The notes: generated by a model from the letters alone, not told the origin. Positions 1,110 to 32,343 are shown, numbered from the stretch's first letter. The stretch is DNA of 41,262 nt from Candidatus Cloacimonadota bacterium (GCA_021772705.1 JAJFLN010000763.1:1-41262), one strand, 5' to 3'. Made by a program: numbers and translations.

Positions 1110-2879
1110 ATGATGCCAGAATGGATTGAAGAGCTTGATGAAGCGAGGGACGGACGTTTCCCGGGAGTCGTCCTGGTCTTCAACACTCAGGACAGGGTTT
1201 TCGTCGAGAATGAACAACCCATCCGCCTTTCTCTGGACTACTTCCTGGCCCTTCACCTCACACGGTCCGGGTTCTCCGTGGCACGCGTCTCGGCCGGAAC
1301 AGGCCTGCAGCCCATGATCCCCCCGAAGGATCTGATGCCGGATCGGGACGTCCCTTCCCCATTTCCCACGGTGTCGGCAGGAACAGAGATATCCTCCGTG
1401 ATCCATTCCCTGTCCCAGCTGTTCCTGACTGCCAGATCGCCTCTGGCCCTGATTGTCGACTTCGCCGAGAATCTCGTACCCCCATCTTCCGGAGCGGGGG
1501 TTTCTTCGCCGGCTCGGGAGATGATCCTGGAGATGCTGGTGACCCTGGCCCGGGACGAGCGTGTACGCAGTCGTGGCCACCTGCTGGTGTTGATCTCGAA
1601 CGACGTGTCGGTCCATCCGTTGCTCGGTCAGTCAGGACGGTTTCGCGTCATCTCGATCGACCTTCCCGACACTCGATCACGCGATGGATTCGCCAGAGAT
1701 CTGGCCCGGGATCTGGTCGCCGCCGGGGATGAACCAGCCTCGATCCTGGAATCGGATCTCGACTTCGAAGAGTTCGCACGAATCACCGGTGGGTTGCGCT
1801 TGATCGACCTGGAGAGCCTGCTATGCACGGCTAGCACTCGAGGAAAGCCTGTCTCTCGATCCCGGGTCCGGGACGCCAAGGGGAGGAGCATTCGCAGCCT
1901 GTCGAATGGCCTGATACAGGTGCAAGATCCCCGTGGTGGATTCTCGGAGGTCGCCGGGGCATTTCACGCAAAGACCTACTTCAGGCGGTTGAAATCCCTC
2001 TGGACGAGAGGAGCTGGAAATGTCCCTCAGGGCATTCTGCTGTCCGGTGTTCCCGGTTGCGGCAAGAGTCATCTGGTGCAGGCGCTGGCCCATGAGCTGG
2101 AGACCCCGTTGCTGGTCATGAGAGGCATTCGAGAGTCCCTGGTCGGCGCGTCGGAGAGGAACCTGGACCGAGCCCTCTGGGTCACGGAGAACCTGAGTCC
2201 CTGCATCCTCTGGACCGATGAAATCGACCAGGCCATTGGCCGGAGGAGTTCCATGCCTTCCGGCGACTCGGGTACTTCCGAGAGGATGACGGCCCGAATG
2301 TTTGAGTTTTTCGGTTCCATGGCTCACCGGGGGCGAATCATCTGGGTCGCCACGACCAACCGACCGGACCTGCTTGATCCAGCACTGCTCGATCGTTTTC
2401 AGGTCGTGATTCCATTCGTGCATCCCGGTCCTCGGGAGCGGGAGGAACTCCTTCCCTGCCTGGCCAGACAGCTGGGCCGGGAGCTGGCCGAGGATGTGGA
2501 CTGCCGCGAGGTCGCCTCTCGCCCGAAACTCGAGGGCTTGACCGCTCGGTCCATTCAGGAGATCCTGGCAGCCGCGGCCTCGAGAGGCCATCGAGAGGAC
2601 GAAGGCACAGGGGCACGGATCGATCGGGAGAGCCTCGACCAGGCCGTGGCAGACTACATGCCAATGCACGATCGCAGTCACCACGAATTGATGGCTCTCG
2701 AGGCCATCCGAGCGACCTCTTTCGCCTCACTGCTCCCCTGGACCCAGGGGACAGGCAATCCGGTAGATTCCTGGCCTCCCTATCTCGACTCCGTGGTGAA
2801 CCGTGAAACTGGAAGACCGGACCCGGAGGCGATTTCACGACGGATCCGAGAGTTGAGGCAGCATCTGGGCCAGCCCTGA
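1110..2879 (+). CDS. AAA+ family ATPase (classic AAA clade) with a roughly 300-aa N-terminal region of unknown function
   Basis: Walker A GVPGCGKSHLVQALAHEL. Walker B ILWTDEIDQ. Sensor-1 and arginine-finger region VATTNRPDLLDPALLDRF. RBS AAGGAGAG before the ATG. Confidence 0.8.
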   Translation: MMPEWIEELDEARDGRFPGVVLVFNTQDRVFVENEQPIRLSLDYFLALHLTRSGFSVARVSAGTGLQPMIPPKDLMPDRDVPSPFPTVSAGTEISSVIHSLSQLFLTARSPLALIVDFAENLVPPSSGAGVSSPAREMILEMLVTLARDERVRSRGHLLVLISNDVSVHPLLGQSGRFRVISIDLPDTRSRDGFARDLARDLVAAGDEPASILESDLDFEEFARITGGLRLIDLESLLCTASTRGKPVSRSRVRDAKGRSIRSLSNGLIQVQDPRGGFSEVAGAFHAKTYFRRLKSLWTRGAGNVPQGILLSGVPGCGKSHLVQALAHELETPLLVMRGIRESLVGASERNLDRALWVTENLSPCILWTDEIDQAIGRRSSMPSGDSGTSERMTARMFEFFGSMAHRGRIIWVATTNRPDLLDPALLDRFQVVIPFVHPGPREREELLPCLARQLGRELAEDVDCREVASRPKLEGLTARSIQEILAAAASRGHREDEGTGARIDRESLDQAVADYMPMHDRSHHELMALEAIRATSFASLLPWTQGTGNPVDSWPPYLDSVVNRETGRPDPEAISRRIRELRQHLGQP

Positions 2880-2922
2880 TTGACCTCCGAGGCAGTCTCC
2901 GTGATTCTCTGGAGGATCGAAC

Positions 2923-4455
2923 TCAAACAGCTCTCAGAATGTCCTCTGAACGGGGCGGTTTGCAGTCCCGTAGCAGTCCAAGCACATTTGTCTCCGAGCC
3001 CAGGGAGGTCAGGCTCGATGCTGCCTCCTCCCTGACTCTTCTCTGCAACTCCTCCACATCCTCCGTGCTTGCCTGGCTGATGGCGTGGACGATGTCGTTT
3101 CTCAACCGGCGCAAGACCGTCAGGTTCAAACGGGAGCCGTCAATCAGACTCCCCTTGGGCACCAGATTCAATTGCTGCCTTCCATGTTGAACCCTGGACT
3201 CCCTTCCTTCCAGCAGCCTCTCCAGGTCCGACAGGGAGCAGCTGGGGACGACACTGGTGTCGAATCCCTGTCCCACCTTCACCTCTCGCAGGAGGATCTT
3301 CTGACGCAGAAAGTAGCGCCAGCAGAGTTCCAGAGCGTTGACGAGGGTGAGAAACGCACCGTTCCGCTCGTTTGCGCGCAACTGAACCGCTGCCGCCGTG
3401 ATCCGTGTCAACAGCAGGCCCCGCAGATGGTTCTCGTCAGCCAGGAAGAGCTCCTGGGTGAACTGGGCACTGTCTCGACGATCCAGCGCCAGGCGAACGA
3501 GCGCCCGGGCTGGATGATCCCGTGCCAGGTCTGGCGGCAGGGGCAGGCTTGCCAGTCGGCTCACGTCCAGCCCGAGCCAGGCCTCCAGGAATCGGCTCCA
3601 ACCAAGCACGATGGCAACCTTCGACTCTGTATCCCGGGTGAAGTATCCGGCCACACCGGGACTCCTCAAGGCCTGGTCAATACGTTCCAGCTGAAGAGTG
3701 GCTGCTCGATAGTCTCCGCGGTCAAAGAGGCTGCAAGCAGAATCGAACTGGCTGATCTGGAAGATCTCGAAGGGATCCGGAAGCTGCCGAAGATACTCGG
3801 AGCCGGTCATGGGCTTGCGCTTACGGGGATCAAAAACCTCGAAATCGGTGTAGAAGATGCTCGCCCCCGGCAGCACCATGCCACTGGTGAAGGAACCGGC
3901 CACCATGGGCTTCTTGGATCCCGAAACGTCAATGGCGATCTCCCGAGCTGCCGTGTCCTCCACCTGCTTCCGGACGGCCTGAAAGGTCTCGGCCGGGTCC
4001 GAACCAGCCACGGCGGTCCAGTGGATGCTGGGCGGCTCAGACCAGACAGTGTGGCCCCTCTCATATGCCTCCAGCAGAAGAACGGCCAGCTTCTCTGCCA
4101 GCTCTCCCGTCTCGGTCGTGGCCAGAATTGCAATGTAGGGGGTTCGCACGGACGTCAGGAAGAGACAGACTGGCTCGTAAGAGAATCCGAGGAGTGAGAT
4201 GGCGAGGTCGAAGTCGCGATCCGGCACGTCTGGATCTCGAACCAGCCTGGGGTAATCGGCTCGCAGCAACGTTCGATAGACGGAGCCCACCAGGGGAAGG
4301 ACTTCACGAACATAGAACGAGACGCCGTCCTCGCTCCTGGCGGCCTCGGAGCGTTCGTCCTCGAGGCGTGCCAGATCAGCGAAAAGCTGATTCCAGTCCG
4401 TCTGATCATCCAGACCTTGCAGCCGATCGATCCGATCTTGAAGCTGAAGCTCCAT
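2923..4455 (-). CDS. CARF-HEPN protein (Csm6/Csx1 family cOA-activated RNase candidate)
   Basis: N-terminal CARF signatures: ISLLGFSYEPVCLFL (the LGxSxxP strand), YIAILATTETGE, and the ligand-pocket motif IDVSGSKKPMVAGSF (compare D-[IVL]-T-G-G-T-K-x-M-S). C-terminal HEPN Rx4-6H motif in LRRLRNDIVHAIS. GGAGG RBS upstream of the ATG. Confidence 0.7.
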   Translation of the reverse strand: MELQLQDRIDRLQGLDDQTDWNQLFADLARLEDERSEAARSEDGVSFYVREVLPLVGSVYRTLLRADYPRLVRDPDVPDRDFDLAISLLGFSYEPVCLFLTSVRTPYIAILATTETGELAEKLAVLLLEAYERGHTVWSEPPSIHWTAVAGSDPAETFQAVRKQVEDTAAREIAIDVSGSKKPMVAGSFTSGMVLPGASIFYTDFEVFDPRKRKPMTGSEYLRQLPDPFEIFQISQFDSACSLFDRGDYRAATLQLERIDQALRSPGVAGYFTRDTESKVAIVLGWSRFLEAWLGLDVSRLASLPLPPDLARDHPARALVRLALDRRDSAQFTQELFLADENHLRGLLLTRITAAAVQLRANERNGAFLTLVNALELCWRYFLRQKILLREVKVGQGFDTSVVPSCSLSDLERLLEGRESRVQHGRQQLNLVPKGSLIDGSRLNLTVLRRLRNDIVHAISQASTEDVEELQRRVREEAASSLTSLGSETNVLGLLRDCKPPRSEDILRAV

Positions 4456-4866: not shown

Positions 4867-6057
4867 TTAGCCTGACAGCACTCCCGTAGGATGGCAGAGA
4901 AGCCGGTGCAGAATCTGATGAAACTTGCGTCGGTCAGCTTCATCATCGTTCCCGGGAGAAGCAAGGTTTCGGATCGTGGCGATAAAGGCTCGGGCCTCCT
5001 CCGTGCTGCACTCGGCCTTCCGGCGCACCGCATCCAGATCCAGATTCTTCAGGACACTCAGGACCGGTGGTGGCGGCGGTGATGCGGGCTCGAGCGAGGC
5101 CTTTCGGGCATGCAGATCCCGTACACGGTCCAGTCCGATCTCTCCAATCCGTTCTATCATGGCCTCGTGACCGACGAAACCGAGGTAGGAAGCCAGTTGT
5201 TGCAGCCGGCTCCGCACTGGCCGACTCTCGAAGGCGGCCTCCTTCTCATCCTCCAGCAGACGAATCTCCTCTGCAGCCTCATGGTCGGGGATAGACTTCA
5301 GAAGGCCGGCAATCCAGCATCTGATCTGGAACAGCAAGGGACGCGCCGAGTGCTGAGTAGCTTCCTCGAGAGATCCGGCTGAATTCAGGGGGTCCTTGCT
5401 CTCTTCGTCTATTCTGCGTTTGAGGTCCAGTGGATCTACATCTCCCTGATCGAAGGAGTCGGAAGTTGCGCGAAGGAGCCTCTCGAACTTCTGAATGTCG
5501 AGTCGTCCCTTGGCCCAGCGCCGACCAGCGTTGATACCCAGGGCCCGGATGAAGGCGCCAGGGTGCTCCGGAAGAGGAACTCCCAGCAGCAACCGCTTGT
5601 TTCGAAAGCGGTCCACGTCGACTGCGATCTCCTGAAGACAATCCTTGAGTTCATCCTCCGGGGAATGCAGGTACCCGATTGTTGCCTTACGGAGGCGGAA
5701 GTACGCCTGGCGAATGCCGGAAGCACCAGCCTGACCAAACATGAGAGTGTCCCCTCCTCTGTCAGGCATCTCGGCAGTCCAACTGGCATACATGGCCATC
5801 AACTGATACGAGCTGGCGGTTCCACCGGACCTGACTTTACTGGCAGTCCTGGCAGGGTCGCCGGGTGCCTCCCCGGCGGCGCCCAGGCCGCCGGCCCTTT
5901 CGGTCGACGTGGTATCTTTCGGTTCCCTGTCAGGCTCCAGAGCAGCTTCAACCTGGGACTCAAGCTGACCCGGATCCTCGTCCCAGTCGACCGACTCCTT
6001 TACTGAAGTGATCCGCGGGGCTAGACGGATGGCCCGGGGCTTGCGATCGCTGCTCAC
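4867..6057 (-). CDS. hypothetical protein (last gene of a 5-gene coupled operon)
   Basis: 396-aa ORF. Its start overlaps the upstream gene by 4 nt (ATGA). No recognisable motifs. Confidence 0.5.
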   Translation of the reverse strand: MSSDRKPRAIRLAPRITSVKESVDWDEDPGQLESQVEAALEPDREPKDTTSTERAGGLGAAGEAPGDPARTASKVRSGGTASSYQLMAMYASWTAEMPDRGGDTLMFGQAGASGIRQAYFRLRKATIGYLHSPEDELKDCLQEIAVDVDRFRNKRLLLGVPLPEHPGAFIRALGINAGRRWAKGRLDIQKFERLLRATSDSFDQGDVDPLDLKRRIDEESKDPLNSAGSLEEATQHSARPLLFQIRCWIAGLLKSIPDHEAAEEIRLLEDEKEAAFESRPVRSRLQQLASYLGFVGHEAMIERIGEIGLDRVRDLHARKASLEPASPPPPPVLSVLKNLDLDAVRRKAECSTEEARAFIATIRNLASPGNDDEADRRKFHQILHRLLCHPTGVLSG

Positions 6058-7241
6058 TTTTCCGGCCTCCTCCAGTTGATCTCGAACTCCATGGCCTTGT
6101 CGGGCTCCCGGAGCATCTCATTCAGAATGAGAGCTGCGGGATGCCTTTCAGGGAAGCTCGACCGGGCCTCCGCCACCAGCTCTCGGGCGTCCTCGATGGC
6201 ACCGTCCTCAAGCTCCAGCGCGACAGAGAAGTACCAGCAGTTCGCGTTGTACGGGTCCAGCTCGCGGGACTGCTGGGCAGCCCGGCGGCTTGCTTCCAAC
6301 CAGTCCGCAGCGCCGGACTTTCTGGCATCCTTGCGAATCTGACGAGCCTTCTCGAGGTACTTCTGGGCCGCTCCGACGTCGCTCCAGAGAGAGGACAGTG
6401 GCCAGAGAAGCCGGTACTCGATCAGGTTCGTGACCATGTCGATCGATCTCTCACGGGCCTCCTTCGGCAGGAGCTTGAAGAGCAGGTCGCTGGCAAAGGC
6501 CTTCAGAAGCGTATTCTCTATGTTCCAGCCCGGCTGTTTCCATTCGCCCAGCTCGGCCTCGGCGCACCAGGCCTCCACGAGGCGCTGATTCACCCTGCCG
6601 AGCCGGAAGAAGAGTCGCGTGCATTTCTCCACGTTTCCTTTCATGAGACCCGAAACGAGCTTGTCCGGGTCCACCTTCGTAGGGAATGTGGCTGCCGTCG
6701 TCAATCGCTTGTCAGTATTGTTCCCGTTCAGATAGATCACCATCTGCTCGGACCCGGTTGGAATGAACGATGGCTCAACAAATGGAACCTGCAACAGGGG
6801 GCGGTACAACTTGTCCATGACCGAGAAGCAGGTGGCGTTGAGCGGCTTCTGCAGGCAGGCTGTCATGGGATCCTGCAGCTGCTGCAAGAGTGTGCGTTCA
6901 TTCTCCAGAGTTGCCTTCTGGCTTAGCAGGATCACTGCGAGCCTCGGAAATCGCCGGCGAAGATCCTGAAGGGCTTCAATCCCACTGGGGTATGTGGGAT
7001 CGACAGGGTCTTCGAACATGAGATCCATCAGGACCAGATCCGGAAGTGGAGCAGCAGTTTCCACAGCATGCCGCATATACTCGAATGCCTCGGTGGGAGT
7101 CGTCTGCGGTTCCAGGATGTCAAGTTCATAGGGGTAAACGTTTGACAGCTTATCCCATAGAAACTCCAGGTCTTCCACGAGACGCTGATCCTCCCACTGG
7201 TCATCGACAATCATCACTCGACAGGTTGTCTTGGCCGTCAT
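6054..7241 (-). CDS. response-regulator receiver (REC) domain protein with a helical, TPR-like C-terminal region
   Basis: N-terminal CRVMIVDDQ ... DLVLMDLMFED ... AVILLSQK pattern, which is typical of a CheY-like receiver with an Asp in the LMDL strand. 4-nt overlaps with both neighbouring genes. Confidence 0.6.
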   Translation of the reverse strand: MTAKTTCRVMIVDDQWEDQRLVEDLEFLWDKLSNVYPYELDILEPQTTPTEAFEYMRHAVETAAPLPDLVLMDLMFEDPVDPTYPSGIEALQDLRRRFPRLAVILLSQKATLENERTLLQQLQDPMTACLQKPLNATCFSVMDKLYRPLLQVPFVEPSFIPTGSEQMVIYLNGNNTDKRLTTAATFPTKVDPDKLVSGLMKGNVEKCTRLFFRLGRVNQRLVEAWCAEAELGEWKQPGWNIENTLLKAFASDLLFKLLPKEARERSIDMVTNLIEYRLLWPLSSLWSDVGAAQKYLEKARQIRKDARKSGAADWLEASRRAAQQSRELDPYNANCWYFSVALELEDGAIEDARELVAEARSSFPERHPAALILNEMLREPDKAMEFEINWRRPEK

Positions 7242-8086: not shown

Positions 8087-8556
8087 TTCGCCTCCTCTCC
8101 TGCGCTCCGGCCAGCCCTGCGACAGCGGGATCGCCGTGAAAAACGTCGAGCACGGAGACGCGACTCCGGTCTCATCGTTTCAACGTGACTGTCTTCTGAT
8201 GCGGCCTCTGGGTTCTGGAGATAACCCGGCCAGATGGGAAGTCGAATCTCATGCACGGTCTCACTACGCGCGGCAGACCACTCCGGCCGGTGCTGTTCCA
8301 GTTGCTCCAGAGAGAAAGCCAGCAGAAGCAGGAGACCGGAACGCTCCGGAGTTCGTTCATCAACTGTCTGCTCGATCAGTCTCATACCAGCTCGGTCATC
8401 GAGGCCTCGGATCGCCCCCACCCGGACCTGTGTCCCTCCGGCGACGGGAAAGGAGATCCTGCGGCGATCATCGTCGTGAAAGCGCAGGGCTGCCAGGATC
8501 GCTTTGAAAATAGACTCTCTGGCTGACATGGAAGTTGTATTCGCTGGACACTTCAT
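8083..8556 (-). CDS. hypothetical protein
   Basis: 157-aa ORF coupled by 4-nt overlaps. Confidence 0.45.
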   Translation of the reverse strand: MKCPANTTSMSARESIFKAILAALRFHDDDRRRISFPVAGGTQVRVGAIRGLDDRAGMRLIEQTVDERTPERSGLLLLLAFSLEQLEQHRPEWSAARSETVHEIRLPIWPGYLQNPEAASEDSHVETMRPESRLRARRFSRRSRCRRAGRSAGEEAK

Positions 8557-9497
8557 CGTGACGGCTCCTCGAACCCGGTGTCCCCTTGCACCTCGGCTGT
8601 GAATCGGAGCATGTGAGCATCCACCCTGCGAGTCAACTCTTCAAGCGCCGCCCACCAGGCAGTCCCCAGAGAGGAGCCATCCGGGCTCTCGGCGTTGACC
8701 CCTTGCAGGTCTCGTTGCCAGTGGAGCCGGTACGACTCGGTCATTCCGCCGTCCTCGAGTAGGCTGTCTATTCCTGGTCCGATGGGCAGAAGGAGATAGG
8801 CAACTGCCGCAATTCCGTGCGTCGTTGACCCTCCTGCCGAGTCTGCCAATGAGTCGAGTGTGAGGGCGGAGCGGCAGATTGCATTCCGCTGTTGCCAAAG
8901 ATCCCTACACAGGACTAGAATCCGTTCCCGGTCTTCAGTCTCTACCTTGCCATCCAGCAGGTTCGGCAGTACGAGTCCGGCGGCGGACAGGCCCATGAGC
9001 AGAGTGGTCGAAGCGTTCATGACCCTCTCCGAAGTGGAGGTCAAGACCTGAGCCAGATCGACCGGTCCCGGAGACAGGGTAGGGTTCATCTGCAGGCGGT
9101 CTCTCATGCTTCGGACCAGGGCGAGGGCCTCCTGATCGGAGAATGCCCAGCCACGAGGACCGCGAACCAGCCTGGGGATGATGTCCTCGTTCGGTTCCAG
9201 CTCTCCCCCGGTCCAGACCACTCCCGCTGCGTGGGCGTTGCCGCGGAGAATCTGAAGACCCAGGTCCGATTGCCCGAGCATGGCATTGTCTGTCACGATC
9301 AGTATCGCGTTGGGAAATGTCGGTGGTTCATTCCGCCACCCACCACAAGGAGCCTCGATGCGAATGGAGCAGTCACCGTTTGATGCTGCCAGCGAAGACA
9401 TTTCCGCGAACAGCTCTCTCTTCACAGCGCTGTCGTGAATGACGACTATCTCTTTCAGATTCCCTGTCACGGTTACCTCACCTCCAGAAGGAGCCAA
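8553..9497 (-). CDS. hypothetical protein (first gene of the minus-strand operon)
   Basis: 314-aa ORF followed by a 4-nt overlap with the next gene. About 320 bp of noncoding sequence lies upstream. Confidence 0.5.
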   Translation of the reverse strand: MAPSGGEVTVTGNLKEIVVIHDSAVKRELFAEMSSLAASNGDCSIRIEAPCGGWRNEPPTFPNAILIVTDNAMLGQSDLGLQILRGNAHAAGVVWTGGELEPNEDIIPRLVRGPRGWAFSDQEALALVRSMRDRLQMNPTLSPGPVDLAQVLTSTSERVMNASTTLLMGLSAAGLVLPNLLDGKVETEDRERILVLCRDLWQQRNAICRSALTLDSLADSAGGSTTHGIAAVAYLLLPIGPGIDSLLEDGGMTESYRLHWQRDLQGVNAESPDGSSLGTAWWAALEELTRRVDAHMLRFTAEVQGDTGFEEPSR

Positions 9498-16391: not shown

Positions 16392-16461
16392 GTGGATAGA
16401 GCGCGCTCTCTAGAAGTCGTGGGGCAACAAACCGGTGCCCGGACAAGGAAGGGAGCGAGCC

Positions 16462-17319: not shown

Positions 17320-18867
17320 TTGAGGCAGCAGGCGAACATCCTACTGAAAGACCCCGTTGACTATCAGACAGCCAGCACAGGAGATACGATATTCATCAGC
17401 ACCCTGGGAATGTCACCTGGCACAGTGGTCCAGGCCCTCTATAGCATTCTGGAGCCGGAGACAGACGGGAAGGAGACAGGCCGTGTAGACTGGGTGGACC
17501 AGATCGTGACTGGCGTCAGCGCCCCATCAGCCTGGCCTGATGAGGACCGCATTCAGACAATACTGGAGACGGGCGAGGAGTATAGTATTCAGTCGGCGAA
17601 GCAGATTGCAAAGCTGCTTGACCAGGCCCAGTCATTCGGCCTTCTTGAACCCGATTCTGAGCCGAAGACGCTCATCAAGGACGTGACCGATTCGAACTGC
17701 ACGAGCGTTCGTGACGCCCTGCTCACTCATGTTGAGCGACGGCGGAACGAGATTGGTCCCGATGGCCGGATCATCTTCGACTTCACCGGTGGAAGGGTCG
17801 GCATGTCCTACTATCTGGGTTTTGCGGCTCAGTTGCTGGGGGAAGCCAATGATCAACTTCTCTATACGAATGTAAACCGAGGCAAGGGCGACTACTTGCT
17901 CTCCACGCCGGGACCGAGACAGGGGGAAACCCCTCGGAGCCGACCGGAAACGACCTGGATTCCGAAGGGCCGGGACCATATCTTCCGGGTTCCATTTCCG
18001 CTGGCACGCATTCCCTTCGTGAAGTCGATGGTCGCTTTGAACAATGGCAGTTCCATCGTCCAGGGCGCTCTGCATTTCGACACCATCATGAGTGAACTGG
18101 AGTCCTACACTGCCCTGGGAATCTTTGCCCGGGGGGTCGCCCACGAGGGCCTCAATCTGATCCGAGAACTGCGAGAACTGGGCGGGAGCCGGCCGGCGGC
18201 AGCAGAAGAGACCCGGGCGTTGCCGGAACAGCTGGGCAGCAAGGACGCGCTCTTTCGCCTCCGGCGCCTGGAAGCCTACCTGACGGCTTTTGATGTACTG
18301 GCAGGCAGGAACCCAGGCGGTGCAGTTCCAGAAGCCAGAGGCCCCGTGAACCTGTACGAGATGATAAAGGCGGAAGCTGACTGGGTACGAGACGACATCG
18401 CTCCCGATCTGAAGGTGGAAATCAAGGTGGCCGAGGAACTCAGACCCTCGATCCACGCCGAGGCACTTCAGCTGGCGATCATCCTGTTGATGAAGAACGC
18501 TGCTCAGGCCGCCCGCAGGGCCGCCCCGCCGCGGATTGTTGTGATTGCCGAGGCCCATCACGGTTACATGTCACTCTCGATTGACAACAATGGCCCTCCT
18601 TTCCCTCCGGAACTCTTGCCCTACGCGAAGAAACTGATCCGGCCGGTCTCGGTACTGGCGGCGATGCGTGCGGCCGAAGCCGGCCAGCAGAGGGAATCGG
18701 AGAAGCGGCGAGGTGTCGGTTTAGCAATCGCCAGTCAGCTACTCGAGGCTCTCTGGGCGGGCCAAGAGGTTCATGATGAAGACAGACGGCCAATGTCGCC
18801 ATTGGAGATCGAGAGCGAGGGTTCCCTGTGCGGAGCTCGATACCGGCTGTTGCTGCCTTTGGAGTGA
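17320..18867 (+). CDS. CARF-domain sensor histidine kinase (CARF - DHp - HATPase_c)
   Basis: TTG start preceded by a GGGAGG RBS. CARF motifs: DTIFISTLGMSPGTVVQALYSIL and IIFDFTGGRVGMSYYLG. The candidate DHp H-box is ARGVAHEGLNLIRELREL. HATPase_c boxes: N-box LQLAIILLMKNAAQA, G1 IDNNGPPFP, G2 GVGLAIASQLLE. Confidence 0.6.
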   Translation: MRQQANILLKDPVDYQTASTGDTIFISTLGMSPGTVVQALYSILEPETDGKETGRVDWVDQIVTGVSAPSAWPDEDRIQTILETGEEYSIQSAKQIAKLLDQAQSFGLLEPDSEPKTLIKDVTDSNCTSVRDALLTHVERRRNEIGPDGRIIFDFTGGRVGMSYYLGFAAQLLGEANDQLLYTNVNRGKGDYLLSTPGPRQGETPRSRPETTWIPKGRDHIFRVPFPLARIPFVKSMVALNNGSSIVQGALHFDTIMSELESYTALGIFARGVAHEGLNLIRELRELGGSRPAAAEETRALPEQLGSKDALFRLRRLEAYLTAFDVLAGRNPGGAVPEARGPVNLYEMIKAEADWVRDDIAPDLKVEIKVAEELRPSIHAEALQLAIILLMKNAAQAARRAAPPRIVVIAEAHHGYMSLSIDNNGPPFPPELLPYAKKLIRPVSVLAAMRAAEAGQQRESEKRRGVGLAIASQLLEALWAGQEVHDEDRRPMSPLEIESEGSLCGARYRLLLPLE

Positions 18868-21872: not shown

Positions 21873-23276
21873 GTGAAGAAGTGGCTCTATCGTTACGAAA
21901 CCAAGGGGATCCAGTCCTGGATACTCGATAGTAATCTGATGCGTGATCTGGCCGGGGGAAGCGCGCTGGTAGAGAGCCTGACCGACGAGGCCGAGAAACA
22001 GGCGAAGATCGCCGGGGCTTCCGAGATCGTCCAGGCCACCTCGGGCTCGATGACCGCTGTCTTTCCCGACCAGAACTCTCTACAGAAGTTCGCGTCCACC
22101 TGGCCCATGGTTGTCGAGTGCCGGGCTCCCGGACTGCATCTGGTCCAGGCCTGGACGCTCGAGTCCGAGAGCCTCGGTAAACTGTTTCGCAAGCTTGGTC
22201 ATCGGCGTAACCGGGTACACGTCAGCGGCTTCGAGGCAGGTCCCTGGGTGCTGCGATCCGGTCGCTCGGGCCTTCCTGCCGTCCCCACACCGCCCGATAT
22301 TCGGAGCAAGGCTCGCATGACTGCCCTGGACGAGGCCGCGGTCGCGAAGGAGCGGGCACGAAACATGCAGGAAGCGGTGGGCGCTGTGACGGGGGGGCGA
22401 CCGTGGGGCGACTTCGAGCAGGAGGTGGATGACTGGATAGAAGGTCCGGTTGGCGTCATTCACGCCGACGGCAGCGGGGTGGGCCAGCGGCTCATCAACC
22501 TGGAGAACGACTACGAGAAGTTGAGAGCGTTCTCCGAGGCGTTGAAGGAAGCCACCCGGGATGCGACGGCCCGTGCTCTGGAAACACTGCCTGCAACCAG
22601 GAAGCTGCAGGCCCGGCCAATCGTCTCGGCTGGTGATGACCTCACCTACATAGTGCCCGGGGCGAGGGCACGGGCATTCGCGACCCGGTGGCTGCTTGCC
22701 CTGGAGGACGAGACGAAGAAGCGTGAAAGTGAGCTGGGAGGTGGGCTGTGGGGAGGGGCAGGAATCGCGTATGTCCACCGCCGTTTCCCCTTCTCCCGTG
22801 CCTATGAAATGGCCGAGAGTCTCTGCAAGGATGCCAAAGAGGCCGTGCGAGGGCGCCAGCAGAGTGTCATCGCCTTTCGGAGGCAGACCGCATCTCTGGC
22901 CGACAACGATTCTCCTGGTGGGATTGCCTGGGTGATCGAGGCCGGTGAACCGGGCTCGCCGCTGGATCGACTGGTTGAAGTCTTGAGAGAGCTTCCGAGA
23001 GGGCCTCTCCGAACCTGGCTGACCCTGTTCGAGCGAGGCGACGACGTCCGGGCGAGGCAGTTGTGGCAGCGGACGCAGGAAGTGGCGGACACGAAGGTCT
23101 GGGACCGTTTCCGGAGTGCCCTGACCGACGTCGGCGCAGACCCGAATACGGGCCGACTCGACACCGCCACCACGGGCAGGGCCGTCGCTCTCGGGGGAGT
23201 GACGACGCCCATCCGGGACGGACTTGCCTTGCGCCACATCGAAAAGGAGGTTCAGTCATGGCCTGCCGCCGATTGA
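21873..23276 (+). CDS. compact Cas10/mCpol-like palm-domain protein (GGDEF-type nucleotide cyclase fold), with no HD domain and no zinc finger
   Basis: GTG start after a GGGAGGAAG RBS. N-terminal YETKGIQSWILDSNLMRDLAGGSALVESL (the Cas10-type GIQxFI ... GGS motif). Metal-binding VIHADGSGVG. Cyclase motif IVSAGDDLTYI (GGDD-like). Post-motif GGAGIAYVHRRFPFSRAYEMAESLCKDAKEA. Lacks the Cys cluster expected for a Cas10 treble-clef domain. Confidence 0.6.
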   Translation: MKKWLYRYETKGIQSWILDSNLMRDLAGGSALVESLTDEAEKQAKIAGASEIVQATSGSMTAVFPDQNSLQKFASTWPMVVECRAPGLHLVQAWTLESESLGKLFRKLGHRRNRVHVSGFEAGPWVLRSGRSGLPAVPTPPDIRSKARMTALDEAAVAKERARNMQEAVGAVTGGRPWGDFEQEVDDWIEGPVGVIHADGSGVGQRLINLENDYEKLRAFSEALKEATRDATARALETLPATRKLQARPIVSAGDDLTYIVPGARARAFATRWLLALEDETKKRESELGGGLWGGAGIAYVHRRFPFSRAYEMAESLCKDAKEAVRGRQQSVIAFRRQTASLADNDSPGGIAWVIEAGEPGSPLDRLVEVLRELPRGPLRTWLTLFERGDDVRARQLWQRTQEVADTKVWDRFRSALTDVGADPNTGRLDTATTGRAVALGGVTTPIRDGLALRHIEKEVQSWPAAD

Positions 23277-23980
23277 GATTCTCCCTGTCGAGCTACTGGC
23301 ACATCGGCTCCGGAGTAGGCGCCGAGGCCGTGGCCGACGCTCAGGTTCTGCGAGACGGCGACGGGTTACCGCTCGTTCCCGGCCGAACGGTGAAGGGACT
23401 GTTGCGAGAGGCGATGGAACTGGCCACTCGATCCGGACGAGTCGCGGCCGATCGTCCGGTTCGCTGGTTTGGTTCCTGCTTGCCGGGAGTTCCTCCTCCT
23501 ACGCCAGGCCAGGAAACACCTGAAGTGGGAGATGTACAGGAGGTCCGCCTGGAAGAGGGTCGGTTCTCCACCCACGAGGGAGCACTCTGGTTCGGGTCGG
23601 CCTGTCTTTCCGACGACTGGCGCCAGTGGGCACGGAGGCTCAAGAAGAACTCCGTCAGTTCCAGCTCTTCGGAGAGCGAAAACAGCAGTGAAGCGGGCTC
23701 AAATTCGCAACAGAACGAACTTGATCTTTTCACGTTGCAATCACTCTTCACCTATGTCGCTTCGACCGCCATCGACTCTCGTGGAGTCGCCCGCGAGCAC
23801 TCGCTGCGCGTCTCGGAAGTCACGGTGCCCATGGATCTCACCTGCCAGGTTCGGGGGCCTGATGACGATCTCTCCTGGGTAGAGGACCTCCGGGCGAGCC
23901 TTCCGCTGCTGCGAGCGCTCGGAAAGCGACGAAGCCGTGGCTATGGGCGGGTCGAGGTGACCATGGAGGAGGACTCATGA
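23258..23980 (+). CDS. RAMP superfamily protein (Cas5/Cas7-like)
   Basis: ATG 23258 follows an AAAAGGAGG RBS and overlaps the upstream gene by 19 nt. RAMP motif LPLVPGRTVKGLLREA. C-terminal G-rich loop LGKRRSRGYGRVEV. Confidence 0.7.
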   Translation: MACRRLRFSLSSYWHIGSGVGAEAVADAQVLRDGDGLPLVPGRTVKGLLREAMELATRSGRVAADRPVRWFGSCLPGVPPPTPGQETPEVGDVQEVRLEEGRFSTHEGALWFGSACLSDDWRQWARRLKKNSVSSSSSESENSSEAGSNSQQNELDLFTLQSLFTYVASTAIDSRGVAREHSLRVSEVTVPMDLTCQVRGPDDDLSWVEDLRASLPLLRALGKRRSRGYGRVEVTMEEDS

Positions 23981-25422
23981 GCCGGTTTCATCGCATCGAA
24001 CTCGACCTGGAGCTGCTGACCGATGTCTGTCTCAGCACTTCGAATCGCACTCTGGGGGAGGCGCAGACGCATGCCTTTGTCCCGGGACGAACGCTCTGGG
24101 GTGCAGCGGCTTCAGCCGCCTATCGATCCGGTATGTCCGATCAGGAAGCGTTCCGGCTGTTCCACCGGGGAGCGGTTCGAGTCCTCGACGCCGTTCCCAT
24201 GGCCGATGGCGCCCGGGCTTACCCGGCCCCGCGAAGCTGGCACGAGCCGAAAGCCAGGGTTAAACCTGCCGGAGCGGCGGCGTCAGATCAGGTGTACAAC
24301 TTTGCTCTCGAAGCCGCACGGAACGGGCAGGAGGGAGTGCAGTGCAAGCCTCTCGGGGACCACTGGGTAACTCCGGATCGGAGGTACGTGGAAGTGACGA
24401 GCACGTACTCTCTGCGCACAGCTATCGGCTCCGCGGGACGAGCTCGGGAGGGGCTTCTCTTCGGTCTCCCGGTGATACTGGCGGGAACAAAGCTGGCCGG
24501 CGCCCTGATCGGTCTGAAGTCTGACGTGGAGCAAGTGGCGGCCCTTCTCACGGATCGGGAGCTCTACCTGGGCCGCTCGCGGAACACCGAACTCGGGCTT
24601 GTGCGCGCCAGCCGCCGAGACGGAGGTTTCAGAAGCCTGGCCCACGGCCAGGGGCGGGTGACATCAGTCTCTTTTCTCTGCGTGTCACGATGCATCCTTC
24701 GCAGACCGGACACGGGGGAGCCGACATTGATTCCCTTCCCTGAAGCCTTCGGACTGGACTCATTCTGGACAAACGACGAAGCCTCGAGCTTCGTTCGCAC
24801 GGTTCGTGTCACTCACTTCAACAGCAAGCGCTGCCGCCCGGAACGGGAACGCTATGCTCTGGAGCGTGGATCGGTGCTGACGTTCTCCTCCGGCTCCTCC
24901 GATGTGGACCTGGGAGCGCTGGTGGACTTCGTCGAGGGCGGTGTCGGCGAGCATCTGGGAGAAGGCTACGGCGACGTCGTGGTGGCTCCCGAATGGCTGA
25001 CGGTGGGGAACCTCACTTTGGCCGCGGAGTCGCAAACTCCAGCAAGTTCCGGGAAGGCCCCGAGCGATGAGTTGTACGCCTGGGCCTGCCAACGGGCTGG
25101 CCAGAGACGGCTTGCCGTCGACCTCTACGAGTCTGCCTGCGATGCTGCCCGAGGGCTTCAGTCCAATGGCGTACCGGCGGCTCAGTGGGGAACCCTGCAT
25201 CGCATGGCGCGTCAGGCCAGGTTCCGGGCCGACGGCAGTCCACTTCTGCAAGAGGTGCAGGAGTACCTGAAATCGGGAAAGAGGGGTATCGCATCGGTGT
25301 GGCGAAGTGCCAGGAAGCCGCTGCTGGAAGCTTGCGAGAAGCGAAAGAGTGAGGAATTGCCGCTGTTTCTGGAACATCTCGCGAGTGCCTGCATGCGGCC
25401 GGCGGGGGGGGATGACCGATGA
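23977..25422 (+). CDS. RAMP superfamily protein with a C-terminal extension
   Basis: ATGA-coupled to the gene upstream. RAMP motif HAFVPGRTLWGAAASA. G-rich loop EGGVGEHLGEGYGDVVV. Confidence 0.65.
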   Translation: MSRFHRIELDLELLTDVCLSTSNRTLGEAQTHAFVPGRTLWGAAASAAYRSGMSDQEAFRLFHRGAVRVLDAVPMADGARAYPAPRSWHEPKARVKPAGAAASDQVYNFALEAARNGQEGVQCKPLGDHWVTPDRRYVEVTSTYSLRTAIGSAGRAREGLLFGLPVILAGTKLAGALIGLKSDVEQVAALLTDRELYLGRSRNTELGLVRASRRDGGFRSLAHGQGRVTSVSFLCVSRCILRRPDTGEPTLIPFPEAFGLDSFWTNDEASSFVRTVRVTHFNSKRCRPERERYALERGSVLTFSSGSSDVDLGALVDFVEGGVGEHLGEGYGDVVVAPEWLTVGNLTLAAESQTPASSGKAPSDELYAWACQRAGQRRLAVDLYESACDAARGLQSNGVPAAQWGTLHRMARQARFRADGSPLLQEVQEYLKSGKRGIASVWRSARKPLLEACEKRKSEELPLFLEHLASACMRPAGGDDR

Positions 25423-26822
25423 CCGACCATCCCTGGCTGGAGTTCGAACTGGGTCTGGTGACAATCGAGCTGGAATCCGCTTTCGCCGTCAGCACATCAG
25501 AAGGGGACAACCTCTTCGATTCCGTCTTCGTCACCGATGCCAACGGGCTGCCCTCCATTCCGGCGGAGAGTCTGGCGGGCATTCTCCGACATGCCCTGGC
25601 GGGTCCGAATGATCCGAGCACTGACCCCATCTGTCGTCAGGTGTTCGGGTATCAGGAGAAGGATCAAGGAGATGCCTCTCGCGTGCGTTTGAGCTTCGCC
25701 CAGCCACACGGGTGCACCGATCGACCTGTCCCCTTTCGAGGTGCATCCCTGGATGATAAGGTGCTCGAATTCCTGGCCGCCGGGGTCGGTCGAGATCACG
25801 TGCGAATCGGCGGGCACGGTGTCGTGGATGGGCGAGGCAAGTTCGACGAGTTGCTCGTTCCGGCAGGGGCGCGGTTCACCTTCGAGATGTGTGTCTCCAG
25901 TCAGAGCCCGTGCCGTTTGGCAGATCTGGTTGCCCAGCTGGGCCGGGTCGAGGTTCGCATCGGCCGGGGAACCCGCCGTGGCCTGGGACGCTTCCGTGTC
26001 GAACGGGTCCGATCAGTCAAGCTCGACCTGACGAAACCGGAGGATCTGAACCGACTGGACCGACTGCCTGTTGCTCTGGAGAAGCTGGCGGACTCGAAGG
26101 AACTGACTGAAGAGAAGACCGATGGGCAGCTTGAACAAGAGGGATGGCTTCAGGCCGAAGTAACCCTTCAACCGATTGGTACCTGGATTGTGGGTAACGG
26201 GGTTCCTACCGGCCGTGAGCCTCCCCGGTCCGATGAGGGCACCTGGGACCGGCTGCCATTGACGGAGCATCGGATAGTCTGGGACGGACCGGGTGATGCA
26301 AGTCAGGGTCGCGTGGAGGAACGGGCACCCTTTCTCATCCCGGCAAGCTCCGTCAAGGGGGCGCTGCGTCATCGTACGGCCTTTCACGCTCGCCGGCGAG
26401 AGGGCATCTGGCTGGATCCGGAAACCGGGAGCGTTGACGAAACGCCGGAGGAGAGGGAGTTGTTCGGGGAGGTTCGAGGTGGAACGGAAGGTCGTCCTGG
26501 CCAGGTCCAGATCTCGGACGTCTATATCGCCAAAGAAGTTCCCTATGTTTCATTGCAGCATGTGAGCAGCGACCGCTTTACCCAGGGCCCCATGGATCAC
26601 TTGCTGTTCGACGAGGTCGTTCTGGGCAAGACCCGTTTCACCCTGGACATCGCGGTCCAGGAGCGAGATCTCTCGGAGGTGGCCCGTCGAGCCCTGGACG
26701 ACGCGTTGAATGACCTCTGCGCCGGGCGATTGGCCTTCGGCGCCGGACGCGGACACGGGCGCTTCAAGGGCAAAGTGCAATGGAAGAACGACCGGGGCCT
26801 GATCGCCCGGGAGGTCGCATGA
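25419..26822 (+). CDS. fusion of two RAMP (Cas7-like) domains
   Basis: First RAMP motif LPSIPAESLAGILRHAL with G-loop RIGRGTRRGLGRFRV. Second motif FLIPASSVKGALRHRTAF with terminal G-loop FGAGRGHGRFKGKV. ATGA coupling at both ends. Confidence 0.7.
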   Translation: MTDHPWLEFELGLVTIELESAFAVSTSEGDNLFDSVFVTDANGLPSIPAESLAGILRHALAGPNDPSTDPICRQVFGYQEKDQGDASRVRLSFAQPHGCTDRPVPFRGASLDDKVLEFLAAGVGRDHVRIGGHGVVDGRGKFDELLVPAGARFTFEMCVSSQSPCRLADLVAQLGRVEVRIGRGTRRGLGRFRVERVRSVKLDLTKPEDLNRLDRLPVALEKLADSKELTEEKTDGQLEQEGWLQAEVTLQPIGTWIVGNGVPTGREPPRSDEGTWDRLPLTEHRIVWDGPGDASQGRVEERAPFLIPASSVKGALRHRTAFHARRREGIWLDPETGSVDETPEERELFGEVRGGTEGRPGQVQISDVYIAKEVPYVSLQHVSSDRFTQGPMDHLLFDEVVLGKTRFTLDIAVQERDLSEVARRALDDALNDLCAGRLAFGAGRGHGRFKGKVQWKNDRGLIAREVA

Positions 26823-27256
26823 CAGACATGGTGGTTGAACTGGGCGCCTGCTACTGTTCCCTGAAACGGGAGAGAACCGGAAGCACGTCGAAGCAAGAAG
26901 AAGCGTGGCGGTTCCTGCCTTCCGATGGCCAGGGTGTAGTGGTGCTCTCCGACGCAGTTCGCCGGTTCAAGCCGGGCGTTTCAGAGGGCCTTCTGGTCGA
27001 GGCTGATGTTACGCAGGGCTCGATGACGACCCTGGTCCGGATGAGTCCCGATGGATGGCAGGCCTGGCAATGGCGAGAAACGGACGGCAGTTCACACTGT
27101 TATGTGGAGAGGGACTACCTGTCTTCCGAACCCTCGCGAGACGCTCCTTCCCTCCTACGTTATCGTCACTACTGGACTCTCGAAGAGGATGATGGGATTC
27201 GAGTCTGGCACCCGGTCGGCTCCCGTTTCTGTGGCTTTGTGGAGGATGTCAAATGA
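26819..27256 (+). CDS. small protein of unknown function (by position a candidate small-subunit analogue)
   Basis: 145 aa. ATGA-coupled between the RAMP genes. No recognisable motif, and it does not look like an obviously helical Cas11. Confidence 0.4.
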   Translation: MTDMVVELGACYCSLKRERTGSTSKQEEAWRFLPSDGQGVVVLSDAVRRFKPGVSEGLLVEADVTQGSMTTLVRMSPDGWQAWQWRETDGSSHCYVERDYLSSEPSRDAPSLLRYRHYWTLEEDDGIRVWHPVGSRFCGFVEDVK

Positions 27257-29496
27257 TCTCGAGAATCACAGCGCCCTACGGCTTCGTTCCTCTGAGTTCC
27301 ACCGTGGTTTTCCCCGACTGGCTCAGGCTGCGGGAGTCCCTGCCGCCTCCACTGCATGACGTTCCCTTTCAGGAAGGGCTGTGGGGAACAATGGAGCTGG
27401 AGATCACTGCCGAGACGCCCATCTTCATCCGAGGAACCGGCCCCGATACTTCCCAGCCTTTTCAACTCGACAGCAAGACTTACGGAATACCCGGAACCGC
27501 ACTCCGGGGCGCCCTGCGCAACGTGGTGGAGATCGCCACGTTTGGCCGGTTCCAGCGCGTCAACGACCATCGCTACGCCGTACGCGACCTCCATAACCGG
27601 GAGCTGTATGGACGGCACATGGCCGAGATCGTCAGGAACCAAAAGACCGGAAAGGGCGAACCCATGCCCCTGGTCAATGCAGGCTGGCTCACCCGGGAGA
27701 AGAACGGCAAGCAGGGCCATCGCTACCGTATCGAAGTTTGTGATTTCGCCAGGATCGAGTACCGCCCACTGGAGGAACTGGCTCGCACCCGGGGCATCAA
27801 GAACTTCCGGCCTGGCGAGAAGCAGAGTTCGGTGAACAAGTACAACAAGTGGGGTAACGCAAGCCTGGACGTCGAGGTGAATGCAGACCTTCGCCGGCCT
27901 GACTTGATTGCTGGGCGAACGATGCTGTCCCGGTTCGGGCTGGCGACGCCCCACGCGGATGGAACCAGAGGAACCATCGTGTTCACGGGTCAGCCTTCGC
28001 TCTGGAAACCCGACCCGACAGGTAAGCGCCGGCGAGCAGGCAACGCGAAGCATCACGATTTCGTGTTCCTGTCAGGAGGAGCACACCGGAGCCTGGAAGT
28101 GCAGGATGGCACCTTCAGGGACTTCGAATTCGCCCACAGCGACCGGGGACAGCAGAATCGGCTGGGAAGCTCCCAGACACCGAATGAAGAGTGGGGATAC
28201 TGGCAAGAGAGACTGAATGGGGGAGCGAGAGTCCCGGTCTTCTTCTTGACCCGTGACGACGGACAGCTGCGCGCCATGGGCCTGGCCATGATGTTCCGGC
28301 TCAGTTACGATCGATCCATCGGCGATGCCATCGATCACGTTACCCCGGATCATCGAAGACCGGAGGCCGGCCTGGACTTTGCCGAGGGGCTGTTCGGTAC
28401 CGTACGCGATTCGAAGAGCTCCGAGAGTGGCGGCGAGTCTCCAAGAGATCGTTCGGCCCTCGCCCTGAAGGGACGAATCGGTCTCTCCCATGCTGTGGCG
28501 ACTGAATCGACACAGCCCGTTGCCGCTGCTGTGAAAGTGGTTCTCGGTTCACCCAAGGCTAGCTACTACCCAAACTATGTCCAGCAGGCGCGAGGAGGCG
28601 GTTACCGGACCTGGATGGACCCGGACGCAACCCCGCGCGGCTGGAAGCGCTATCGCACGATGACCCGCACCTGGACGCCTCCTTTGCCGACCAGTGGAGA
28701 TGGACGCTCCGTGAACATCGAGAAGGTCGGAACGACTTTCCGGCCTCTCCCGGAAGGCACCCGATTCGTGGCCCACATCGATGTGCACAACCTGCTTCCC
28801 CAGGAACTGGGAGCGCTTCTCTGGGCGCTCGATTTTGGTGGTGACGATCGGGCACGTCACGCACTGGGCATGGCTCGCCCCCTCGGCTACGGCCGCTGCC
28901 GGTTCTCCGTCAATTCCCATGATGTGCGGAGAATGGACGGCAGCCAGGCGGAACTTGATGAGTGCCGTCGCCTCTTCGAGACCTATATGGAGGAGCAGGT
29001 CCCGGGCTGGAGGAGCTCTCCCCAGATCCAGGAACTTCTCGCCCTGACCCATCCGGTCGATCCCGACCAGGCGCACTATCAACGGCTCGATCCGGGCCAG
29101 CGAATCAACGAGTTTGTTGATGCCAAGAAGGCCGGCCTCTCCTTGCCATCCGTCAGCGCAGCGGCCACATCCATCTGGCCCGCCGCCAGGGAAAGCCAGC
29201 GTTTCTCCACCTCGGCTCCACATCGTGGAGGGGGAGCACCTCGGTCGGCTTCCATCTCCGCTGGAGGCGGCTCCGCTGGCTGGCCCGGTAAGCGTCGAGA
29301 CGACGTGATAGAGGTCGAGCTGACCGGTTTGACGAAGAAGAAGAGATGGCGCTGCACTGTCGTCGGTCATGCAGGTACGGTGGGGTTCATCACCGAGGGC
29401 GAGGCTCCGCCGGAACCCAAGGAGGGACAGAAGCACAAGACCGTCGTGATCAGCGGAAACAACCCGACTGGTCTGGTCCTTCGCTGGAAACCATGA
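27253..29496 (+). CDS. large RAMP protein (Cmr1/Csm5-like Cas7) with a roughly 200-aa C-terminal extension
   Basis: RAMP motif TYGIPGTALRGALRNVVEIATFGRF. G-rich loop LGMARPLGYGRCRF. ATGA-coupled to the upstream gene. Confidence 0.65.
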   Translation: MISRITAPYGFVPLSSTVVFPDWLRLRESLPPPLHDVPFQEGLWGTMELEITAETPIFIRGTGPDTSQPFQLDSKTYGIPGTALRGALRNVVEIATFGRFQRVNDHRYAVRDLHNRELYGRHMAEIVRNQKTGKGEPMPLVNAGWLTREKNGKQGHRYRIEVCDFARIEYRPLEELARTRGIKNFRPGEKQSSVNKYNKWGNASLDVEVNADLRRPDLIAGRTMLSRFGLATPHADGTRGTIVFTGQPSLWKPDPTGKRRRAGNAKHHDFVFLSGGAHRSLEVQDGTFRDFEFAHSDRGQQNRLGSSQTPNEEWGYWQERLNGGARVPVFFLTRDDGQLRAMGLAMMFRLSYDRSIGDAIDHVTPDHRRPEAGLDFAEGLFGTVRDSKSSESGGESPRDRSALALKGRIGLSHAVATESTQPVAAAVKVVLGSPKASYYPNYVQQARGGGYRTWMDPDATPRGWKRYRTMTRTWTPPLPTSGDGRSVNIEKVGTTFRPLPEGTRFVAHIDVHNLLPQELGALLWALDFGGDDRARHALGMARPLGYGRCRFSVNSHDVRRMDGSQAELDECRRLFETYMEEQVPGWRSSPQIQELLALTHPVDPDQAHYQRLDPGQRINEFVDAKKAGLSLPSVSAAATSIWPAARESQRFSTSAPHRGGGAPRSASISAGGGSAGWPGKRRDDVIEVELTGLTKKKRWRCTVVGHAGTVGFITEGEAPPEPKEGQKHKTVVISGNNPTGLVLRWKP

Positions 29497-32339: not shown

Positions 32340-32343
32340 CGCG

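Follow-up and report, generated by a model that had tools for sequence, protein, structure and literature searches.

The window analysed here is an entire NCBI contig of 41,262 nt (about 61% GC) from Candidatus Cloacimonadota bacterium (GCA_021772705.1, JAJFLN010000763.1:1-41262), whose genes were picked from a list of open reading frames (ORFs) by codon-position GC and a codon-usage score. A 28-kb stretch of it carries the effector genes of a type III-D CRISPR system, a gene for a CARF-HEPN ribonuclease, a five-gene operon whose products include a putative receiver (REC) domain protein, and a gene for a protein that joins a CARF domain, a type of domain which recognises the CRISPR alarm molecule cyclic oligoadenylate, to a histidine kinase, next to a gene for a sigma factor of the extracytoplasmic function (ECF) type. 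That the region holds a type III-D system and a CARF-HEPN ribonuclease is almost certain. The locus is of a familiar kind, a type III-D system that has an effector of the Csm6 type, to which an apparently undescribed class of CARF effector is added. Three related loci serve for comparison: L001 (15 kb), L002 (1.7 kb) and L003, a contig of a Burkholderiales metagenome-assembled genome.

The type III-D effector operon and its ribonuclease

The effector genes lie on the plus strand. The first (21873..23276) encodes a Cas10 of type III-D of 467 amino acids (PADLOC Cas10 2e-60 and Cas10d 5e-48; Pfam Cas10 palm2 5e-9), which has no HD domain and carries the Palm2 motifs HADGSGVGQ and SAGDD. When it is aligned to the Cas10 of the Synechocystis III-Dv system (8s9t_C, E 1e-12), SAGDD falls opposite the GGDD of the structure. 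The protein is 54% identical to the Cas10 of L003, which keeps both motifs and whose locus has a Csx1 effector. An identical Cas10 occurs in the Logan run SRR15505515. A survey of type III loci found an HD domain in just 3% of type III-D Cas10s, and lists AGDD among the variants of the cyclase motif that occur in Cas10s with a known effector and are judged likely active (PMC11229360). Since AGDD is on this published list, the Palm2 site is an accepted active variant and is judged competent for the synthesis of cyclic oligoadenylate (cOA); the rarity of the HD domain in type III-D, together with the listing of AGDD, makes this HD-less protein a normal Cas10 of its subtype.

Five genes follow. 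A Csm3-like RAMP of the Cas7 type (240 amino acids, 23258..23980), whose start was set from a gene call on the Logan contig L006, matches PADLOC Cas7_IIId at 1.3e-35 and Pfam RAMPs at 1.2e-10, and is 56% identical to the corresponding gene of L003. The next gene (23977..25422) encodes a Csx10-type Cas5 (PADLOC Cas5_IIId 2.1e-42; NCBIfam Csx10 2.6e-5; 49% identity to L003). It is followed by a Cas7-2x, with two fused Cas7 domains (25419..26822; PADLOC Cas7_IIId 7.5e-82; Pfam RAMPs 1.6e-21, in two stretches), which also matches the "Cas7-2x" chain of the Synechocystis structure (PDB 8s9t_D, 8.9e-6) and is 58% identical to that of L003. The fifth gene (26780..27256) encodes a small protein of 158 amino acids without a family match in Pfam, NCBIfam or PADLOC and without a PDB match; it is assigned as the small subunit from its Cas11- or Csx19-like position, and the same slot in L003 is occupied by a homologue (51% identity, E 1.7e-43). 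The last product (27253..29496) is a Cas7 with a large insertion, a RAMP of the TIGR03986 family (NCBIfam 4.8e-84, 283.8 bits against a cut-off of 161; PADLOC Cas7_IIId 3e-124; 53% identity to L003).

The ends of these genes overlap at all five junctions, by four bases at three of them. Five of the six products have strong profile matches, and all six genes are collinear with those of L003, with identities of 49–58%. By sequence, 21873-29496 is a complete type III-D effector operon.

The accessory ribonuclease is encoded on the minus strand (2923..4455, 510 amino acids). It matches PADLOC CARF1--CARF_HEPN at 1.3e-26, Csx1/Csm6 at 4.9e-23 over residues 85-476, and the NCBIfam CARF model at 2.9e-6; Pfam by itself returned no match. 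The closest PDB entry is the Csm6 of Thermus thermophilus (TtCsm6, 5fsh, 3.2e-7), and the C-terminal motif RNDIVH is an intact R-x4-H. These matches identify the protein as a Csm6/Csx1-type RNase effector. Its nearest solved relatives are TtCsm6 and Cam1. Both are dependent on cyclic tetra-adenylate (cA4), and cA4 is for this reason our best guess for the messenger, by analogy. In the direction of transcription the gene follows the REC operon, from which 412 nt separate it; both are on the minus strand.

An earlier note on this DNA had seen the first gene as an HD-less, Cas10-like cOA synthase. The missing HD domain and the cyclase motif stand; the gene is not that of a stand-alone synthase, but encodes an ordinary type III-D Cas10 and heads a six-gene operon. 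The genes at 23258-29496, which the note left out, are those of the Cas7, the Csx10/Cas5, the Cas7-2x, the small subunit and the Cas7 with the insertion. All the other genes that it named were found at their coordinates: the CARF-HEPN protein, the CARF-histidine kinase, the ECF sigma factor, the AAA+ ATPase, the TraD/HerA-like ATPase, the ClpB-like protein, the SPFH protein and the phosphatase, as well as, more weakly, the REC protein. Both CARF calls (2923-4455 and 17320-18867) hold up in profile searches. The observation itself, that 28 kb contain a Cas10 with a putatively competent cyclase and two distinct CARF proteins, one a predicted RNase and the other a predicted histidine kinase beside an ECF sigma factor, is therefore confirmed.

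A CARF-histidine kinase and its candidate partners

The second CARF protein (17320..18867, plus strand) has 515 amino acids and is predicted to be soluble. Its CARF part (about residues 20-240, with the motifs ISTLGMSPG and DFTGGRVGMSY) matches Pfam Cas_NE0113 (PF09623) with 25.9 bits, for a cut-off of 23, and PADLOC Csx1 at 5.6e-9 over residues 23-242. It is followed by a putative dimerization and histidine phosphotransfer (DHp) part, with H275 in the motif GVAHEGLNL, and by a catalytic and ATP-binding (CA) part, which matches HATPase_c at 3.2e-8 and shows an N box (LLMKNA), a G1 box (DNNGPPF) and a G2 box (RGVGLAIA). Pfam HisKA gives no match in the DHp part; H275-x3-N-L falls in a predicted helical hairpin. 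In Foldseek searches, 255-280 columns are aligned across the DHp and CA domains of HK853 and CusS, and CARF proteins rank after the kinases; the fold matches are HK853, CusS, ThkA and VanS. A model of the protein made by AlphaFold from the single sequence was unusable (pLDDT 37).

The family is extremely small. Among 1.84 billion representative proteins, phmmer detected two full-length relatives, P0002 (8e-69) and P0003 (7e-60), after which the next matches are generic kinases at about 1e-4. A word-index protein search returned the query alone, no further member emerged when collections of genomes, metagenomes and viruses were scanned with the alignment of the family, and a tblastn search of plasmids was empty. 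All three proteins exceed the cut-off of 23 for PF09623 (25.9, 24.2 and 26.0 bits) and each matches HATPase_c. In the three-way alignment the CARF motifs ISTLGxSxG and DFTGGRVGMSY, H275-x3-N-L and the N, G1 and G2 boxes are invariant. No CARF-histidine kinase is described in the literature that was searched; the 2020 census of CARF proteins (PMC7498327) lies outside that search and may mention one.

The contigs that encode the two relatives are informative. In L001, the gene of P0003 and the cas6 gene of a type III-B system are arranged tail to tail, 184 nt apart; the type III-B operon encodes Cas6, RAMPs, Cmr5, Cmr3, Cas10/Cmr2 and Cas1, and its Cas10 has both an HD domain and GGDD. A REC-like gene overlaps the start codon of P0003, and is thus translationally coupled to it; its product is homologous to the protein encoded at 6054-7241 in the window (blastp 7e-5, 23% identity over 320 amino acids). 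In L002 it is the stop codon of P0002 that a neighbouring gene overlaps, and this neighbour is homologous to 8553-9497 of the window (blastp 3e-11). The REC-like partner in L001 (408-1994) has a weak C-terminal winged-helix match (DprA_WH, E 0.005), which is missing in 6054-7241; this difference hints that the outputs differ between L001 and the window. A partial gene upstream of the REC gene of L001 was considered as a homologue of a window gene, and showed no significant similarity to any window protein.

Both of these homologues belong to the same operon of the window, which consists of five genes on the minus strand (4867-9497) with a 4-nt overlap at each of the four junctions. The fourth gene (6054..7241, 395 amino acids) encodes a putative REC-domain protein (Pfam Response_reg 4.2e-5, below the cut-off) with the residues DD13-14, D73 and K132-P and, in its C-terminal part, a TPR-like stretch. 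A two-sequence profile of this protein gives weak REC matches (RcsB) only, with the acceptor aspartate aligned. It is a candidate for the phospho-acceptor partner of the kinase. The product of the first gene (8553..9497, 314 amino acids) has no family match in Pfam, PADLOC or NCBIfam, and NarL REC is found at E 0.54 only; its N-terminus (IVVIHDS, LIVTDNAM, VVWTGGE) looks REC-like and might be a second receiver. The REC proteins of the operon are predicted to be soluble. Searches for relatives of 6054-7241 and 8553-9497 gave none outside L001 and L002. The remaining three genes, known from their ORF coordinates and coding scores (8083-8556, 157 amino acids; 7238-8086, 282 amino acids; 4867-6057, 396 amino acids), have no family matches in the same three collections, and we infer their membership of the module from the operon structure alone.

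Since L001 combines a type III-B system with a homologue of 6054-7241, and L002 holds a homologue of 8553-9497, the kinase family appears to be linked both to the proteins of the REC operon and, in two subtypes (III-D and III-B), to type III systems. The comparative sample is very small: two loci are informative for the linkage to type III, and one for each REC-operon partner.

The kinase could nevertheless be an ordinary two-component sensor, the N-terminal Rossmann-like domain of which responds to some signal that is not cOA, or acts on cOA only as a ring nuclease that breaks it down, and its location would then reflect the clustering of genes in defence islands. The CARF scores, which are barely over the cut-off (24-26 bits versus 23), are consistent with this idea, as are the weak sequence matches of the CARF part in the PDB, the best of which are to the ring nuclease Sso2081, and the example of CARF proteins such as RtcR, which act without cOA according to an excerpt of PMC9650030. 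However, the family is found at most 3 kb from a Cas10 operon with a competent cyclase in both contigs that are long enough to judge, and the two operons are of different subtypes; it is otherwise absent from the 1.84 billion representatives, and the motifs of the presumed CARF ligand site are invariant across its members. An ordinary sensor is therefore unlikely. That so rare a family (three members) recurs beside type III systems of two distinct subtypes speaks for a function and against mere coincidence. The chances that 17320-18867 is a cOA-regulated two-component sensor seem to be even, or a shade better than that.

The gene immediately before the kinase, 150 nt upstream (16435..17169, plus strand), encodes an ECF-type sigma factor of 244 amino acids with an N-terminal extension of about 68 residues. 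It has a full-length match to NCBIfam TIGR02937 (3.5e-11), a match to Pfam Sigma70_r4_2 that stays below the cut-off (4.7e-4), and a good coding score. A search for promoter motifs shared between the upstream regions of the operons of the window, including ECF-type motifs (GAAC-N15-19-CGT), found none, and the 11-mers that they have in common look like chance; a scan for sigma-70 promoters and terminators gave no excess over shuffled sequences.

Directly 3' of the kinase, the ORF 18939-19865 would encode a protein with a short N-terminus, one transmembrane helix, a linker rich in proline, arginine and serine, and a beta-rich C-terminal domain. Coding potential is confined to the 3' half. The ORF may be a mis-called gene, or its product could be a membrane-bound partner of the sigma factor and the kinase.

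The best explanation of these data, which we hold with a confidence only slightly above even, is a type III-D locus with two receptors for one second messenger. The binding of target RNA would activate Cas10, which would produce a cyclic oligoadenylate, cA4 being the best guess. The messenger would turn on the CARF-HEPN RNase, leading to non-specific cleavage of RNA. In parallel, it would bind the CARF dimer of the kinase and alter the autophosphorylation at H275; the phosphate would then be transferred to one or more REC-domain proteins of the operon 9497-4867. This second branch would give a slower, regulatory output, possibly a transcriptional one through the adjacent ECF sigma factor. More tentatively, and with chances somewhat short of even, the CARF-histidine kinase and its REC partners could form a cOA-gated two-component system, which would be the first direct link between a type III second messenger and His-Asp phosphotransfer.

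Several points weigh against this explanation. The comparison depends on two extra contigs, one of which is 1.7 kb long. The REC assignments are weak: 6054-7241 stays below the Pfam cut-off, and neither 8553-9497 nor the partner in L001 has a profile match. The REC operon and the kinase gene are 8 kb apart (9497 to 17320), and the interval holds four unrelated genes. The AlphaFold model based on the three sequences of the family is confident in the CA part only, the CARF and DHp parts having a pLDDT of about 30-60. The sigma factor passes the threshold of its family marginally (43.0 bits versus 42.9, over model positions 3-165 of 165), and there is no sigma factor in the sequenced part of L001. 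CARF domains may also have other ligands or partners, of which RtcR is an example in the excerpt of PMC9650030. Finally, the contig has no Cas1 and no Cas6 (from PADLOC, and from the absence of a homologue of the L003 Cas6), and its array is doubtful, with two repeats.

Neighbouring genes and the state of the locus

The protein encoded at 1110-2879 is an AAA+ ATPase (Pfam AAA 7.6e-26). It resembles the anti-phage proteins IetA/IteA (PADLOC 2.5e-21; NCBIfam 1.1e-20, far below the cut-off), and its N-terminal half, of 300 amino acids, has no assignment. No IetS-like protease was found; upstream, 170-1036 encodes a protein with one hydrophobic segment. On the minus strand, 11299-13659 encodes a TraD/VirD4/HerA-like ATPase without transmembrane segment and with an unassigned N-terminus of 350 amino acids, which matches PADLOC mad8 at 3.6e-16 and, weakly, the PADLOC model "HerA, type III coevolved" at 1.2e-4. 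The gene next to it, on the same strand (13659-15770), encodes a ClpV/ClpB-D2-like protein, whose likeness to ClpV/ClpA/ClpB is limited to their second AAA+ module (4e-25). A 1-nt overlap couples the two genes translationally, and the pair fits no defence system of PADLOC. An SPFH protein (20072-20863, 5.5e-14) and a PTP-type cysteine phosphatase (9822-10325, 3e-14) complete this set.

The earlier note proposed that the whole 28 kb form one cOA network, in which these proteins would be further effectors or regulators that respond to the same messenger. Such a network could be suggested by the close spacing of the genes in the interval bounded by both CARF genes and by the Cas10 operon, by the likeness of the AAA+ ATPase to IetA/IteA, and by the matches of the TraD/HerA-like ATPase to mad8 and to the type III coevolved HerA. 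Against it, profile scans found no CARF, SAVED or other known cOA sensor domain in the AAA+, TraD/HerA-like, ClpB-like, SPFH or phosphatase proteins. The genes form separate operons on alternating strands, and the upstream regions of these operons have no promoter-like motif in common. On plasmids, homologues of the TraD/HerA-like ATPase have neither a ClpB-like partner nor type III genes nearby.

The related loci point in the same direction. The type III-D operon of L003 is flanked by genes for PrimPol, Cas1, a TPR protein, Cas6, Csx1 and a WYL-domain protein (108-3910 and 11614-16676), an accessory set (with PrimPol and Cas1 as an adaptation module) that is standard, unlike that of the window. 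L003 has no homologues of the AAA+ ATPase, the REC operon, the phosphatase, the TraD/HerA-like and ClpB-like proteins, the sigma factor, the CARF-histidine kinase or the SPFH protein. L001 likewise has no AAA+, TraD/HerA-like, ClpB-like, SPFH or phosphatase gene. The conservation of the neighbourhood therefore fails for these five genes, which are not syntenic in the few relatives at hand.

Because they are absent from L003 and L001, have no cOA sensor domain and, in the plasmid homologues, have unrelated neighbours, these genes most probably just happen to adjoin the system or form defence modules of their own. A single 28-kb network is very unlikely, and the idea is not worth carrying forward on present evidence. 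The suggestion of the note that the intervening operons of unknown function are candidates for further components fared better in one case: in both L001 and L002, a homologue of a gene of the REC operon (4867-9497) overlaps the gene of the kinase. Its interpretation is thus partly supported.

The products of 10184-11053 and 33982-34878 are predicted to be secreted or membrane-anchored and have no visible tie to defence; the latter has a weak PEGA match, the former being PEGA-like by eye only. The GC content reaches 0.665 in 31000-33100, where two ORFs without a family match (31569-32339 and 32296-33072) rank highest in the window by coding score.

Type III systems can borrow Cas6 and CRISPR arrays from elsewhere in the genome. 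In the window, a repeat search found a possible mini array on the minus strand (35382..35475), which is tentative: it consists of two copies of a 23-nt repeat (35382-35404 and 35453-35475, one mismatch) with a period of 71 nt. The non-coding gap that holds them is about 780 nt long and begins some way past the effector genes, the repeats being 6 kb downstream of these. None of 100 shuffled sequences reached two matches in the same search, and on the minus strand a GGTTTGAAAC-like sequence follows the second copy. The flanks of the copies do not align, the element has no match to an Rfam CRISPR-DR family, and there is no viral match to either the repeat or the spacer. The system may be decaying, or may rely on components that are encoded in another part of the genome.

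Further along the contig (36364-36846, 36865-38505 and about 38600-38990), a reverse transcriptase gene (PADLOC RT 1.6e-28, RT-Cas1-like 2.3e-15) is split by an insertion of the Mutator/IS256 type, the inverted repeats of which are at 36781-36799 and 38545-38564. The downstream part keeps motifs 3 and 4 and has YADL in place of YADD. The split gene is probably a pseudogene, the remnant of an adaptation module linked to a reverse transcriptase. Since it is interrupted by an insertion sequence and has lost YADD, the adaptation side of the system looks decayed, or may be elsewhere in the genome. Beside the insertion sequence, at the end of the contig, two tyrosine recombinase genes lie in tandem (39043-40260 and 40056-41183), which suggests that the locus is in or beside a mobile island. 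The window contains no tRNA gene.

These features could mean that the whole locus is a decaying, non-functional type III-D remnant in a mobile island, with no signalling at all. Cas6, Cas1 and PrimPol are missing in the window, although the closest relative, L003, has all three; the array has two repeats at most; the neighbouring reverse transcriptase is split and carries YADL; and two integrases and a transposase are found at the end of the contig. Nevertheless, intact, full-length ORFs with good coding scores and conserved catalytic motifs are present for all six effector genes, for both CARF genes and for the REC operon. Moreover, arrays may lie beyond the 41-kb contig, and many type III-B, -C, -E and -F loci have no array of their own (PMC12669027). 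A remnant without function is thus quite improbable.

Comparison with known systems

Apart from the kinase and its partners, the locus is ordinary type III-D biology. The set and order of the effector genes (HD-less Cas10, Cas7, Csx10/Cas5, Cas7-2x, small subunit, Cas7 with insertion) are the same as in the III-Dv system of Synechocystis (8s9t) and in L003. The Palm2 cyclase motif is likewise retained, and a CARF-HEPN accessory RNase is encoded nearby. The contig differs in that it lacks Cas6, Cas1/PrimPol and a clear array, and in its accessory genes, which are not those of L003. The RNase itself shares with Csm6/Csx1 proteins such as TtCsm6 (5fsh) a CARF domain and a C-terminal HEPN domain with R-x4-H. 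It departs from them by an N-terminal extension of about 85 residues and in being encoded 17 kb away from cas10 and on the other strand; a similarity to the Csx1 of L003 could not be detected.

A coupling of type III effectors to an ECF-type sigma factor is known from the Craspase/Csx30/CASP-sigma route of type III-E. In the CalpL-CalpT-CalpS system (a SAVED-Lon protease, an anti-sigma factor and an ECF sigma factor), the type III messenger leads to the sigma factor's release (PMC11229360). The window resembles CalpL-CalpT-CalpS in that a type III messenger would be coupled to an ECF-type sigma factor and to a transcriptional response. Among the ORFs of the window that were scanned, there is no SAVED domain, Lon or caspase-like protease, nor a recognisable anti-sigma factor; since SAVED, Lon and anti-sigma are not found, the system is not a member of the CalpL/CalpT/CalpS family. 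In contrast to the CalpL and Craspase routes, the putative sensor of the window is the CARF part of a fusion with a histidine kinase, and phosphotransfer, instead of proteolysis, would carry the signal. It also differs from Csa3 and RtcR, which have their DNA-binding or AAA+ output in the same chain, whereas the DHp and CA domains of the kinase need separate partners.

Another REC-type domain tied to type III CRISPR is that of Cam2, which combines transmembrane helices with a REC domain and is reported without a histidine kinase, the REC domain being proposed to bind cOA directly (PMC11229360). The window, unlike Cam2 loci, encodes a kinase, and its REC proteins are predicted to be soluble. 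Among kinases, 17320-18867 is closest to cytoplasmic enzymes of the NtrB/AtoS/HK853 type, with which it shares H-x-x-x-N-L in the DHp part, the N, G1 and G2 boxes, and the fold seen in HK853, CusS, ThkA and VanS. It differs from them by a CARF sensor in place of PAS, GAF or HAMP domains, by the absence of a Pfam HisKA match, and by the small size of its family, of which three members are known.

The known receptors of cOA are mostly destructive (nucleases, proteases, membrane disruptors, NADases and deaminases), and a few are transcription factors made of one chain. If the proposed mechanism is correct, a kinase driven by a CARF domain would join the CRISPR alarm to the commonest regulatory system of bacteria and allow graded, reversible and amplifiable responses, so that the RNase would be accompanied by regulation that can be reversed, for which the ECF sigma factor next to the kinase is a possible route. 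It could also suggest a kinase-partner logic for the orphan REC-domain proteins that are found in other type III loci.

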